Assembly (NCBI GenBank): GCA_030614005.1
Contig: JAUWKS010000040.1
Location: 1-29,877, forward strand
From: Candidatus Heimdallarchaeota archaeon
Lineage (GTDB): Archaea > Asgardarchaeota > Heimdallarchaeia > JABLTI01
Reading direction: 5' to 3'
DNA length: 29,877 nucleotides
A model generated the notes under the pieces. It did not search any database and was not told where the DNA came from. It was given only the letters and a program-made list of their open reading frames with translations. Every line of letters starts with the position of its first letter. The stretch's first letter is position 1. The position numbers and the translations under genes are program-made. Below, piece after piece: positions 6,121-12,145 of the stretch.

Positions 6121-6660
6121 ATGCCAATCGAATTTAGTGGTTATTTTTTATCAGGCAATCAAGGAGATTCATTTGAGCATATTGTTCATAATGGATTTTT
6201 AAGAGCAAAACAGCATATATGGTTCACAAGTGCAAAAACAACTGATTTTATGATTCCCAACCCACGAACAAAAGAAGCATTACAATTCTCACAGAGATTG
6301 TTTCAGTTAGCTAAAAGAGGAATCAAGATTAAATTCATTCTATCACCAAAAGAGGCAGAAAAGAAATTCTATCAGAAATTGAAAGATGTTGAAAATATCG
6401 AGTTTAAATTTTGTTATAATTTACATATGAAGATTGTTTTAGTTGATAATACATGGTTGTACTTTGGATCCGCAAATCTAACAGGTGCAGGACTTGGGTC
6501 TAGAACTCGAAAAGGAAAGAATAATTTTGAAGTTGGGACGATAACCATTAATCAAAGAGCAATCGAAGCTATTGAGTATCAACTTCAACAAATCTGGAAT
6601 GGTAACGAATGTAAAGGTTGCTATCAAAAACAGAAAGGATATTGTAAGGGTATTAAGTAA
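6121..6660 (+). CDS. Single-domain phospholipase D-superfamily protein (putative nuclease) with a C-terminal Cys motif
   Basis: HxKxxxxD (HMKIVLVD), GSANLTGAGLG, NFE and a C-terminal WxGxxCxxC-x7-C. SD GAGGAG upstream. Confidence 0.9.
   Translation: MPIEFSGYFLSGNQGDSFEHIVHNGFLRAKQHIWFTSAKTTDFMIPNPRTKEALQFSQRLFQLAKRGIKIKFILSPKEAEKKFYQKLKDVENIEFKFCYNLHMKIVLVDNTWLYFGSANLTGAGLGSRTRKGKNNFEVGTITINQRAIEAIEYQLQQIWNGNECKGCYQKQKGYCKGIK
6589..6660 (+). repeat. PLD 3'-end repeat R0 (the coding end of the intact gene)
   Basis: Encodes QIWNGNECKGCYQKQKGYCKGIK*. Confidence 0.95.
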
Positions 6661-6777
6661 GCAAATTTTTTCTCTGAAATAAGATTCTGTGAATAGCTAA
6701 TCTTCAATAACTTCAAGTGTATATAAAGTCTAAAAAAAGAATAAGAAAATAGTAATTATACTATAGGTATAGCATAA

Positions 6778-8571
6778 CTACGTTGTAATATCAAGATTAT
6801 CAAATGTTGTAAACCAAAGAATATCGTCGTCGTCAATTTTTTGCTGGAATTTGATCGTATCACTGATTGAAGTTAAAACAATTTCATTCCATTCCGTTTC
6901 GTTCAAGTAAGCTTTTGAAGCTCTGATAATCCTAGAATCGTTTAATTGCATAACGAAAACGGTTTCTCCATCTACAACATAAGAATTGATGTTTGTTACT
7001 TCAGCATATTCATATGTTTCTGTTGACTCTGTCTGGAAAAGTGTTTTATATTTTATTCTTGCTTCATATACCATTTGTTCACCATCTTTACCTTCCGCAC
7101 TTACAATAGCATATTTGCTAGTATCTTTGGCATCAATAATACCAAAATAAGCAACTTCTAAAGTGTCAGAATAACTATAGTAAATTGGTACATACCAAAC
7201 TAATCGTTGTCCTTCACTAGTGTTTAACGCATAAGCAATTGGCATAGCTGATTCGTAGTTTCCGTGTGGCCGAGCAACAATATCGGATTTACCCATTAGA
7301 GCTTGTAGAGCGATATTCGTTGAAACAAATCCTTGATTTGCTAAGTCATAATAATCAAATTCACCTTTTGAGGCAATGAAAATGCCACTTAGAGAACCTG
7401 AAAATCCTTTAAGATTCATAGCAATATAGGCAACAGATTCACCAGAATCTGGACTTATGATATATCGAGTATCTTCACTCATCATAATTCTGTGATTAGA
7501 TCTTCCATGTATAACCGAGTAAGCCCAATAATCTACACCATCAGGATAACGCAAATCTCGCTTTCTACCCCAATTATTGACTACTTTTTCTAACCAATCT
7601 TCTGGATAGACTTGAGTAACCCATAACGGAGTTGAAGCAAAATCATCCACTTCATATCTTCTGAGTAATTTGCCATTACTTGCGTCTAAAATGTCAACTG
7701 GCCCATACATTCGTGGCTTGAATGGTCCTGCTCGAGTCCATTTTGTCACAACTATAACCCATAGACCAACATCATTAATTGTGAGATAACTTCGTTGGTA
7801 TTTGTATGTTGGATCTCGTTTATACATTAAGGTATCAATTTTATGATTATACCACAACTTATTAGCATAGTTCAGGTTTTCTGGTTCCATAATAATTGCT
7901 TGAGCATTTGGGTCATTAACGTCGATTAAAATAGCTCCGATAATTCGATTCTCTTGGAATAATCCATTTGAACCCAACAATCTATCTCTTTTATATGTTA
8001 CACACCAATATAGAGTTCCATTCACTCTGATAATATTAGCACTTTCTTGTTGCACATTTGAACCGAAAGGTCCATCAAATAGATAAGCTCTTTTTAGTGC
8101 ATATTCTTTTGTTACCATTCGAATAGAAGAATCAACAGGGTCATTTACAAATGGAAACACGTCAAAATGTGTTTCTGTTTCTTCTGCTACCCATCTTGCT
8201 TCACCCATTGTAACTGGAATGGTTGTAATGAATGGCAACGCAAATATTTGAAATAATACAATACCTATAATTGAAATTCCTAATATCCATTTCACTATTG
8301 GAATTTCTTTTTCTTTTACTTGATACAATATTTCAGTTACTAAGTTAAAAGCAAGTGCTAAAGGTCCCGCTACTATTAACCATTGATAAACTCCAAAGTA
8401 CGTAACCCGTACCCAGAACACAATACCCCATGTTAAGAATATTGCACCTACAATAGCAACAATAACAGCAATAGCTAAGCCAGTCCAATCTAGCATAAAA
8501 TATCTGATAATACTCCAAAATAGTATTACAAATGGAATTATAGCTAGAAATACAATTGCAATATAAGTCAT
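6778..8571 (-). CDS. Membrane-anchored hypothetical protein (about 4 N-terminal TM helices plus a large soluble domain)
   Basis: 597-aa ORF, hydrophobic over the first ~115 aa. No catalytic motif recognised. Confidence 0.8.
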   Translation of the reverse strand: MTYIAIVFLAIIPFVILFWSIIRYFMLDWTGLAIAVIVAIVGAIFLTWGIVFWVRVTYFGVYQWLIVAGPLALAFNLVTEILYQVKEKEIPIVKWILGISIIGIVLFQIFALPFITTIPVTMGEARWVAEETETHFDVFPFVNDPVDSSIRMVTKEYALKRAYLFDGPFGSNVQQESANIIRVNGTLYWCVTYKRDRLLGSNGLFQENRIIGAILIDVNDPNAQAIIMEPENLNYANKLWYNHKIDTLMYKRDPTYKYQRSYLTINDVGLWVIVVTKWTRAGPFKPRMYGPVDILDASNGKLLRRYEVDDFASTPLWVTQVYPEDWLEKVVNNWGRKRDLRYPDGVDYWAYSVIHGRSNHRIMMSEDTRYIISPDSGESVAYIAMNLKGFSGSLSGIFIASKGEFDYYDLANQGFVSTNIALQALMGKSDIVARPHGNYESAMPIAYALNTSEGQRLVWYVPIYYSYSDTLEVAYFGIIDAKDTSKYAIVSAEGKDGEQMVYEARIKYKTLFQTESTETYEYAEVTNINSYVVDGETVFVMQLNDSRIIRASKAYLNETEWNEIVLTSISDTIKFQQKIDDDDILWFTTFDNLDITT

Positions 8572-8724
8572 ATTTTCAACAATATCTCCTAATCAATTCG
8601 TTTCTTATTCTTAATAAAATGAATTTCACAATTTATCTTGGTCATAGTGATATTTAAACTTCACCAAATCAAGCGTTTCATGAATTCTATTTTTTTTAGA
8701 TTGTTATAAAAAGAATAAAAACTC

Positions 8725-8793
8725 CAAATTTGGGATGGGAACAAGTGTAAAGGTTGTTATCAAAAACAGAAAGGATATTGTAAAGGTATATAA
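8725..8793 (+). repeat. PLD 3'-end repeat R1 (69 bp)
   Basis: Translates as QIWDGNKCKGCYQKQKGYCKGI*. Confidence 0.95.
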
Positions 8794-8811
8794 TTATAAA
8801 GTTATAAATTT

Positions 8812-9171
8812 CTAGTCACTGACCAATGACCGAAGTTCACTACTTCTTTTGATATTATCAATTAATATTTGCCCATTAAGTAATGCATTCTTTAGTATGA
8901 AATTGTTTTGTTTTAGTAATTCAATAGCCTCAGTTAATGAATAAACAAAAAAATCACACGGAAAGTCAACAATTGGTTTATCAATTCTGCTTTCAGAAAT
9001 TATTACTAAATCATAATCACTAAGTAAATTGAAATCATCTCTACTTCTTGAGCCAAATAAAACAATCAAAACTTTTTCAGAGGAATAACTGTCAAGAAAT
9101 CGTTGAAGATTTAAATTCCATTTCTCACTAAGGGTTTTAATCTTGTGGTAAAAATTTACTTGCAAAAGCAA
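8812..9171 (-). CDS. Minimal nucleotidyltransferase (MNT), antitoxin of a HEPN-MNT pair
   Basis: LFGSRSRDDFNLLSDYDLVII (GS-x10-DxD). Overlaps the end of the HEPN gene; true start uncertain. Confidence 0.9.
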   Translation of the reverse strand: MLLQVNFYHKIKTLSEKWNLNLQRFLDSYSSEKVLIVLFGSRSRDDFNLLSDYDLVIISESRIDKPIVDFPCDFFVYSLTEAIELLKQNNFILKNALLNGQILIDNIKRSSELRSLVSD

Positions 9172-11170: not shown

Positions 11171-11237
11171 ACTTTTAATTAAAAGTATTTTTTTGTAACG
11201 ATTATTCTTCAAGTCTTTTAAACTATGTTTTACATTC

Positions 11238-11288
11238 ATCATAGTAAATTATGCAAACACTCTAGTAAACTGAATAGATTTAATAAAA
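11238..11288 (+). repeat. 51-bp motif, copy 2
   Basis: ATCATAGTAAATTA-N11-TAGTAAACTGAATAGATTT-A-ATAAAA; matches 2740-2790. Confidence 0.8.
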
Positions 11289-11433
11289 TAGATAAAAAAT
11301 GAAAAAAAGGTTAAAAGAATATTAAAAACATAGATACTATCCTTTTTTCTTTCTTCTAACAACAATTACTACGACTAAATGCCTATCATTAATTGGTAAT
11401 TAATTATTAATTTGATCTTATAGAATTATTACC

Positions 11434-11910
11434 TTACATATTAATTGTGAAACTTTCAAGTGTATGATTTTGGTGAACGTAATTATTAACTGATATGAAT
11501 TGCAAAGTGAATGATTTACAATTCAAATTGTATAAAATACCTTTAATTAAAATAGGCTTAATACATCGAGCTACATCACCATTTGGTTCAAAGATTTGCA
11601 AAATGCTAACTATACTACTATTTTCTAAACCATCTAACCAGAAAGTACTAGCATCTGTATTAGAGTAAATATAAAACAATTGTTTGAAGTAAATTTTATC
11701 ACCTACAATATTTATGTTAATATACGGTGGCCAATCGATTCCTAATGTGGTAGTATAGTCGAAGTCGATTTCATATTCCAGAGTTGCATCTATTTCATCA
11801 ATAGGTACAACCATTGGTTGATAAACGCTTATGATACCATTTCCTATCATAGAAAATATCACTATCAATACCACAGAGAATACCATAACAAAAATAACTG
11901 ACCTTTTCAT
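11434..11910 (-). CDS. Hypothetical exported/membrane-anchored protein
   Basis: 158-aa ORF with an N-terminal hydrophobic segment (MKRSVIFVMVFSVVLIVIF). Confidence 0.7.
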   Translation of the reverse strand: MKRSVIFVMVFSVVLIVIFSMIGNGIISVYQPMVVPIDEIDATLEYEIDFDYTTTLGIDWPPYININIVGDKIYFKQLFYIYSNTDASTFWLDGLENSSIVSILQIFEPNGDVARCIKPILIKGILYNLNCKSFTLQFISVNNYVHQNHTLESFTINM

Positions 11911-12103
11911 AAAATAATAATGTTTAAAGTAGTTAAAAAAATTTCTGTGTATTCTAATTTTTTGTAATGATATTTTTCATACTCAATTTTTCTATAAGCA
12001 AAAATATTCCACCAAATCTCTAAAAATATTAAGTATTATCACTTCAGACAGAACAGCATAATATCAGGTTGGATTCATCATTCTGAATGTTGAAAACAAT
12101 GAA

Positions 12104-12145
12104 GATTGCTATCAAAAACAAAAAGGATATTGTAAGGGAATAAAA
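12104..12145 (+). repeat. PLD 3'-end repeat R4 (about 40 bp, the shortest)
   Basis: GAT TGC TAT CAA AAA CAA AAA GGA TAT TGT AAG GGA ATA AAA = DCYQKQKGYCKGIK. Confidence 0.92.

Follow-up and report, generated by a model that had tools for sequence, protein, structure and literature searches.

The 29,877-nt contig JAUWKS010000040.1 of a Candidatus Heimdallarchaeota archaeon (assembly GCA_030614005.1), which we call the window and analysed at its full length, carries a cassette-like array of small gene units that are joined to one another by copies of the 3' end of a phospholipase D (PLD) family nuclease gene. The array is real, it recurs across the genus and it is evolutionarily dynamic, and its joint is a gene end that is essential to the protein it encodes. 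The host metagenome-assembled genome (MAG), referred to as G000 among the genomes compared here, is 90% complete and consists of 126 contigs totalling 3.6 Mb. An earlier note, made from the letters of the window alone, had described an integron-like array of five direct repeats and had proposed that small circles carrying a replacement gene end integrated one after another at the 3' end of the PLD gene. The repeats and the units between them proved to be as that note described them. As to how the array arose, we favour, with a probability of about 0.5, tandem accretion of PLD-led modules, with short-homology recombination and gene conversion then acting on the repeated gene ends, which we call tails.

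A repeat search of the window recovered five direct copies (R1 to R5; Table 1), each 71 nt long and all belonging to one repeat family, with R2 to R5 being 73-85% identical to R1. Each copy contains a 26-bp core made up of an 11-mer, four variable nucleotides and a second 11-mer, and the specified bases of this pattern are matched without mismatch at all five sites; the variable centre reads GAAA in three copies, GAAG in one and AAAA in one. The five core matches in the window compare with none in 100 dinucleotide shuffles, and the two invariant 11-mers around a 4-nt variable centre that the earlier note had reported are confirmed. No further core match was found in the whole 3.6-Mb assembly at up to three mismatches, and at six mismatches relatives of the core occur across the genome at chance level only (five, versus five for the reversed pattern). 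Scans of the window against Rfam and for tRNAs returned no matches.

The first copy, R1, consists of the last 23 codons and the stop codon of the open reading frame (ORF) at 6121-6660, and what the tails have in common is the 26-bp core followed by the last four codons and the stop. R2 can still be read as amino acids (aa) 157-178 of the PLD, whereas the left arm of R3 holds stop codons, R4 has indels, and R5 amounts to roughly the core alone. A conservation profile of the orphan tails (in the window, R2 to R5) peaks from -3 to +38 around the core; the core part of this profile is biased, as orphans were chosen by their core match.

The product of the ORF that ends in R1 matches PLDc_2 (PF13091) with an E-value of 2e-13 and 50.6 bits against a cut-off of 27, which bears out the reading of the repeat as the 3' end of a protein-coding PLD gene. 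The motif HxK(x)4D(x)6GSxN is present as H102, K104, D109 and GSAN 116-119, and these residues are invariant in an alignment of 23 members from archaea and bacteria, as are Cys 98, 164, 167 and 175. Because three of these four invariant cysteines fall within the repeated tail, the tail is a structural part of the PLD protein. The Cys4 site that its last 16 residues complete is probably a zinc site, and a PLD lacking the tail should be inactive. An AlphaFold (AF2) model of the protein has a pLDDT of 86, and a Foldseek search matched it to NucT (6ehi, E-value 4.8e-8), to Nuc (1byr, E-value 1.9e-6) and also to Zucchini, and its best matches in a defence library were the nucleases DrmC and DpdK. 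By family membership the protein would be a Nuc-like single-HKD nuclease, with predicted nuclease activity and a presumed dimer sharing one active site. In every array for which that end has been assembled, the gene adjoining the run of tails is intact. We also considered whether the tail is under constraint at the DNA level within intact genes and rejected this, since the tails there have a same-codon fraction of 0.69, inside the range for the rest of the gene (0.42-0.74).

With Nuc, NucT, Zucchini and BfiI, and with DrmC and DpdK, the window's PLD shares one HKD motif per chain and a Nuc-like fold, and its zinc-binding cysteine cluster has a counterpart in Zucchini; it differs from the Nuc/NucT/Zucchini/BfiI type in that the final 16 residues complete the Cys4 site. 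We know of no other Nuc-like PLD member whose 3' end is reiterated downstream of the gene. Near distant PLD homologues of the Cys4 family (in G016, G026, G030 and two bacterial contigs) no tail repeats were found, and the distant members of this family are single-copy, including those in two closed Heimdallarchaeum-like genomes and the two bacterial contigs.

The repeats delimit units of 2136, 885, 820 and 1647 nt, in agreement with the earlier estimates of about 2.1, 0.9, 0.8 and 1.6 kb, and their cargo (c1 to c4) is listed in Table 1. Unit c1 is 84% identical at the nucleotide level to a unit of G010 at another position in its array; c3 is a paralogue of c4 (68% nucleotide identity), c3 being the decayed one; and the first part of c4 is 92% identical at the nucleotide level to the unit that lies right behind the PLD gene of G001. 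The cargo strands are mixed, with c1, c2 and the 158-aa gene on the minus strand and the TumA-like and TumE genes of c3 and c4 on the plus strand. Family searches of the unit proteins found no recognisable recombinase in c1 to c4, which upholds the earlier statement that no unit encodes one. An exact-protein look-up for other contexts returned the HEPN protein in the same context only, and returned no record for the TumA-like and 158-aa proteins.

Table 1. Features of the window; positions count from its first nucleotide.
Feature	Position	Strand	Remarks
N-terminal fragment 1, B-type PLD	2407..2751	+	aa 1-109, one in-frame TGA
Junction element, ~60 nt	2740..2803	+	fused to truncated PLD end
826-aa FG-GAP/beta-propeller protein	2819..5299	-	flanked by the two N-terminal PLD fragments
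N-terminal fragment 2, B-type PLD	5701..6120	+	open 139-aa ORF, homology to ~aa 112
Intact A-type PLD gene, 179 aa	6121..6660	+	single HKD, four invariant Cys, Nuc/NucT-like fold
R1, 3' end of the PLD gene itself	6590..6660	+	core 6622-6647, stop 6658-6660
Unit c1	6661..8725		597-aa membrane protein, 6778-8571 minus; no family match
R2, orphan tail	8726..8796	+	core 8758-8783, 26/26; open frame aa 157-178
Unit c2	8797..9610		toxin-antitoxin pair: HEPN 9137-9526 and minimal nucleotidyltransferase 8812-9171, both minus
R3, orphan tail	9611..9681	+	core 9643-9668, 26/26; left arm decayed
Unit c3	9682..10430		TumA-like 77-aa gene 9762-9995 and decayed TumE-like remnant
R4, orphan tail	10431..10501	+	core 10463-10488, 25/26; left arm a decayed B-type PLD end like that of G001
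Unit c4	10502..12077		TumA-like gene 10564-10797, TumE 10800-11138, 158-aa membrane protein 11434-11910 minus
Decayed PLD/junction remnant within c4	11238-11299
R5, last clear tail	12078..12148	+	core 12110-12135, 25/26; remnant resembling start of c2 until ~12181
Three tandem zinc-type alcohol dehydrogenase paralogues	12340..15289	-	53-60% identical
Weak decayed PLD fragment	23724..23801	+	aa 115-140; directly before 76-aa ORF

The arrangement seen in the window is not an assembly artefact. Two independent ENA contigs cover 8435-10903, and with it R2, R3 and R4, at 99.8% identity, and Logan contigs from runs of three studies agree fully with the window across R1, R2, R4 and R5; because these independent contigs span the repeat junctions, the array is not chimeric. 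The earlier note had raised the danger of a chimeric assembly, and the source is indeed a low-coverage metagenome in which 70-nt repeats are able to mis-join short-read contigs, but given these contigs, and given that seven other assemblies show the same architecture, a MAG contig wrongly joined through a repeat is barely credible.

PLD genes or tails are present in six of the eleven genomes of the genus, and the architecture of the window is found again in G001, G004, G005, G009 and G010, in HMA_bin2.96 and on one metagenome contig. A scan of all GTDB species representatives for the core recovered known Heimdall MAGs and the Asgard-labelled HMA_bin2.96 and otherwise single matches in bacterial genomes, and a scan of metagenomes recovered, beyond the Heimdall MAGs, single matches on contigs. 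Tails are present as well on a metagenome contig whose PLD belongs to a third subtype (59% identical), and viral contigs yielded neither a core match nor a PLD relative. In the loci examined, all tails detected by profile are co-oriented with the local PLD genes. In G005 the array extends over 20 kb and in G010 over 34 kb; many tails of G010 are badly decayed, with three to six core mismatches. Cargo in the relatives includes a NACHT-NERD protein, a PD-(D/E)XK nuclease of the candidate defence family PDC-S26, Nmad3 and a DUF6036 nucleotidyltransferase pair, as well as TPR, LRR, EutA-like and other proteins.

The arrays also hold at least two whole PLD genes, of subtypes A, B and C, and PLD fragments that share a constant 3' end and have many different 5' ends (aa 69-179, 83-179, 85-176, 113-179 and 130-173, and among the shorter ones aa 148-178, ~155-179, 167-179 and the core only). 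Because whole and variously truncated PLD copies occur side by side in this way, many tails are remnants of whole PLD-led modules and not minimal replacement ends. An origin of the repeats in tandem duplications of the whole gene, which the earlier note had set against its own proposal, is therefore partly right: the whole PLDs, their three subtypes, the varied fragments and two N-terminal fragments in the window speak for it.

Comparison between relatives revealed that content and order of the units vary, as the earlier note had predicted, and a fixed cargo order is contradicted at several loci. In G010 the order c2, TumAE remnant, c1 is a cyclic permutation of the c1, c2, TumAE of the window, with c1 and c2 being 84% identical at the nucleotide level and c1 carrying the identical tail truncation in both genomes. 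The PLD of G001 that stands ahead of a c4-like unit is of B type and just 60% identical to the PLD of the window. Six genomes share a unit with the DUF6036 pair, which follows tails of A, B or C type and stands at array positions from 1 to at least 4. G005 has an extra 8.3-kb block between two cores which is absent from G004, the flanks being 98-99% identical, and the core at the empty site of G004 is a hybrid whose left part is like the upstream core of G005 and whose last bases are like the downstream one. Within this G005-only block, at 11230-15834 of locus L032, a 1534-aa NERD-NACHT protein and a PD-(D/E)XK protein of the candidate defence family PDC-S26 are encoded.

Differences of the same kind were found much closer to the window. 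A contig from run X4 that is 99.4% identical to it has about 2.4 kb more, amounting to two units, precisely at R3; within the added DNA lies another PLD 3' fragment, and the addition has the segment 9643-9674 on either side. In a 510-nt, low-depth contig from run X6, eight of 13 differences from the window cluster in a 75-nt stretch of R4 and the sequence immediately before it; at the four differences inside the R4 site the window has the consensus base, which suggests that this cluster is a conversion tract. One internal deletion lies between two CAGAAAG microhomologies. Half-sites beginning at about core position 10 were considered as a mark of cleavage and set aside as weak, one of them being explained by this microhomology deletion. 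Orthologous orphan tails diverge by about 10-26% (G000 versus G010; G005 versus HMA_bin2.96), no more slowly than the cargo does. We would also like to note an 18-nt insertion just after R4 (window position 10504) in contigs from X4, X6 and X7, the same 18 nt being present in G001.

For successive integration of circles that restore the gene end, these comparisons give a mixed answer: the occupied and empty sites bounded by cores, the additional units in X4 and the intact leading gene are as that proposal would have them, but no circular junction was seen within the array in the run contigs, which are all low-depth assemblies and provide no evidence against circles. Insertion is something we infer from differences between genomes, because deletion or unequal crossing-over between the tails of a larger ancestral array fits as well; the direction of the events (gain versus loss), circular intermediates and any enzyme would likewise be matters of interpretation.

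Over more than 70 kb of arrays in seven genomes we found no integrase, serine recombinase or Y1 transposase, and the window has no match to PF00589. The host genome encodes one Xer-like tyrosine recombinase (on contig C58), no serine recombinase and no Y1 transposase. As to a recombinase that might co-occur with the arrays, G004, G005 and G009, which have large arrays, contain four to six tyrosine recombinase matches versus zero to three in array-less members of the genus, but G000 has the cleanest array with its single Xer-like match, and G001 has no match at all. The only integrase near any array is a fragment on the G009 contig, at a distance of more than 60 kb. Folding of the attC kind was rejected, with five plus-strand and three minus-strand repeats giving z-scores of -0.44 to +2.04 against shuffles. 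Mimicry of dif was likewise rejected, as none of 56 genomic 11-6-11 inverted-repeat candidates is related to the core, the true dif site not being pinned down among them. The arms of the core match each other as inverted repeats at 6/10 to 6/11 positions, which is a weak dyad symmetry. The label "integron-like" is thus apt for the behaviour of the array, and not for its parts, since it has neither IntI nor attC hairpins nor a shared promoter.

In the account that we favour, the array would be a chromosomal accessory-gene island of one Heimdallarchaeial genus with toxin-antitoxin and defence cargo. Each module would start as a PLD nuclease gene with downstream cargo, modules would accrete head to tail in one orientation, and the surplus PLD copies would be eroded from the 5' side down to their last ~40-70 nt. 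The remaining tails would then serve as portable homology for deletion, duplication, re-ordering and probably exchange of units between strains, and an exchange within the core would keep the reading frame of the leading PLD intact. Host recombination or slippage on short repeats would drive these events, gene conversion would keep the cores alike, and a cassette-encoded recombinase would have no part. We prefer this homology-driven account because of the varied lengths of the PLD remnants, a 357-nt pair of N-terminal PLD fragments around a gene and the deletion between CAGAAAG microhomologies, and also because of the near-neutral divergence of orphan tails, the apparent conversion tract at R4 and the ordinary synonymous conservation in the tails. 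Nevertheless, several observations weigh against it. The four orphan cores of the window match at 25-26 of 26 positions next to left arms that decay has brought down to about 55-65%. Of the short tails, at least four independent ones start 3-4 nt ahead of the core, and every tail ends at the stop codon; this recurrent start and constant end mark out a discrete unit of ~42 bp that is unexpected under random erosion. Perfect identity between the two G005 cores that bound the 8.3-kb block is limited to stretches of 9 and 11 nt, a short length for canonical homologous recombination. Accretion at the PLD gene is unexplained unless something targets this gene, and no insertion has been observed directly.

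Alternatively, the array could be a dedicated site-specific cassette system in which the PLD itself is the recombinase or nickase, acting on the ~42-bp end of its own gene through a covalent phosphohistidine-DNA intermediate and then rejoining, with PLD-less units mobilised in trans. We consider this unlikely. The protein is a bare 179-aa catalytic domain without a separate DNA-recognition domain, yet it is the sole component common to all modules, and the end of its gene is the only core-like sequence in the genome. Short tails sharing a discrete ~42-bp unit would suit an enzyme of this kind, as would the lack of any other recombinase in the more than 70 kb of arrays; the several PLD subtypes with older copies decaying resemble tandem elements that each bring their own integrase. 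For comparison, attI adjoins intI, and the att site of SSV lies inside int. The distant Cys4-family members, in contrast, are single-copy and without tail repeats, synonymous sites in the tail are no more conserved than elsewhere (0.69 versus 0.42-0.74), orthologous orphan sites decay at roughly neutral rates, and the site is without dyad symmetry. A PLD-family recombinase would, to our knowledge, be without precedent, which also counts against the idea. On the side of chemistry, the catalytic motif and the putative zinc-binding Cys4 site are intact, the fold is Nuc/NucT/Zucchini-like, DrmC and DpdK are the best defence matches, and a poxvirus PLD-family "nicking-joining enzyme" is among weak PDB matches; PLD-family enzymes act via a covalent intermediate, and BfiI is able to carry out transfer reactions (PMC2475615).

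Two further explanations were weighed. The tails may be inert scars of bygone tandem duplications that involved the PLD and its neighbours; they would have no further role, and genomes would differ through independent decay only, as PLD fragments of many lengths and the many G010 tails with three to six core mismatches would suggest. We find this improbable, as the presence/absence difference between G004 and G005 has a hybrid core and flanks 98-99% identical, extra units sit precisely at R3 in a strain 99.4% identical to the window, the same cargo stands behind three PLD subtypes, the cores of the window are near-perfect next to decayed arms, and unrelated cargo on both strands is not expected from tandem duplication. 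Quite improbable, in our view, is a recombinase supplied in trans from elsewhere (host Xer-like, or an integrase on an unassembled element) and acting on the tails, on the model of dif modules, of IMEX elements or of integrative elements that have lost their integrase. Its site could be the core in a 10-6-10 reading that places the variable positions within the central six nucleotides and gives 6/10 dyad matches, but that dyad is weak, elsewhere in the genome the core has no dif-like relative at up to six mismatches, and the sites are all direct, whereas pdif sites alternate. The four to six tyrosine recombinase matches in G004, G005 and G009, versus zero to three in genomes without arrays, point towards such an enzyme, and the integrase could be missing from a MAG that is 90% complete; but G000 combines one Xer-like match with the cleanest array, G001 has none, and the distant G009 fragment alone represents an integrase near arrays. 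Small recombinase-less dif modules with toxin-antitoxin genes, which can be mobilised in this manner, provide the precedent (PMC6449649). Among these explanations, homology-driven accretion and reshuffling of PLD-led modules is the one we favour.

Further PLD remnants lie upstream of the array. N-terminal fragment 1 is 78% identical at the nucleotide level to 5699-6055, and it is this pair that makes up the 357-nt N-terminal PLD repeat. Both N-terminal fragments end right behind the HxKxxxxD motif, and fragment 2 has neither the GSxN half of the motif nor the Cys tail. The B-type fragments show about 50% identity with the intact A-type gene and 76% with the B gene of G009. Where the N-terminal fragments break off, the sequence (ATCATTGTAgAT) is similar to the right half of the tail core (ATATTGTAAAG). 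The ~60-nt junction element was seen in four places in three genomes, namely at 2740-2803 and 11238-11299 in the window, in G005 (L032, 6177-6243) and in G009 (L037, 15943-15999), and it may be a second kind of unit boundary.

Downstream of R5, homologues of the three alcohol dehydrogenases stand as tandem paralogues behind the 20-kb array of G005, and one alcohol dehydrogenase-like gene lies inside the array of G004. Several genes within 16936-29872 have homologues of 75-87% nucleotide identity that are reordered and scattered in the 34-kb array region of G010, namely those for an ABC ATPase, a DUF2769 protein, a flavodoxin-ferredoxin protein, the 76-aa ORF, a 163-aa ORF and an LVIVD protein. 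In G010 the 76-aa ORF (23833-24063, minus strand) follows closely behind a PLD tail, and in G004 it has PLD remnants on both sides. The variable island probably reaches as far as 23724-24063, and it probably covers most of the window. At the other end of the window, two adjacent minus-strand ORFs (167-592 and 749-1765) correspond to the C-terminal and middle parts of one amidohydrolase family and may be a split or frameshifted gene.

How Asgard archaea acquire genes is a subject of study, yet few platforms for gene capture are known in them, these being integrases, aloposons, Tn7-like elements and a few attC integrons. The array described here adds recurrent, genus-wide stacking and reshuffling of accessory genes without a recognisable recombinase, in which the joint is the end of a nuclease gene. 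If the process is driven by homology, it would be a simple natural design for a landing pad that preserves its anchor gene. If instead an enzyme targets the site, and especially if the PLD does so, this would mean new recombination chemistry and a possible tool; a PLD recombinase would be a further chemical class of site-specific recombinase, and the array an Asgard counterpart of the integron. Under either mechanism, the site is a sequence handle for finding variable cargo in uncultured Asgard archaea.

No description of PLD-tail arrays turned up in the accessible papers on Asgard mobile elements, archaeal integrons, archaeal tyrosine recombinases and PLD enzymes, and within that literature the earlier remark that no archaeal cassette system of this form has been described holds. 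Integrons proper, with attC sites, have been reported in Asgard MAGs (Ghaly et al. 2022, PMC9668308). Like them, the array consists of small recombinase-less units, mostly of one or two genes, with a recurring site, is anchored beside one gene, varies in content and order between relatives, and has a cargo rich in toxin-antitoxin and defence genes. It differs from them in that there is no IntI, in that the site is a non-folding direct repeat of a coding 3' end and not attC, in that the cargo lies on both strands and hence has no common promoter, and in that extra copies and fragments of the anchor gene are found inside the arrays.

The dif modules of Acinetobacter plasmids and IMEX elements, which are Xer-dependent, are likewise small modules that often carry toxin-antitoxin pairs, are bounded by conserved sites of ~28 bp, lack a recombinase of their own and are shuffled between replicons. 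In contrast to the alternating orientation of pdif sites, the sites here are all direct; they have no clear 11-6-11 dyad and no similar site in the genome, and they lie inside a protein-coding gene. Tandem integrated elements are known in archaea (PMC8371274), and with integrative elements accreted in tandem at a gene's 3' end and their decayed att-flanked derivatives (CIMEs) the array has in common a target 3' end copied as direct repeats, a restored gene, head-to-tail build-up and decay of the older units. It is set apart from these by the absence of an integrase or integrase remnant from any unit in the seven genomes, by units of 0.8-8 kb, and by a target gene that is variable, multi-copy and itself part of the modules, unlike a housekeeping gene or tRNA. 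Lastly, the orphan-module arrays of Rhs and contact-dependent inhibition (CDI) systems likewise lie downstream of a main gene and consist of units that open with a short copy of a conserved piece of that gene and are swapped by homologous recombination. In those systems the repeat precedes a variable in-frame toxin tip and an immunity gene, whereas every repeat in the arrays described here ends with the stop codon of the gene and is followed by unrelated cargo on either strand.

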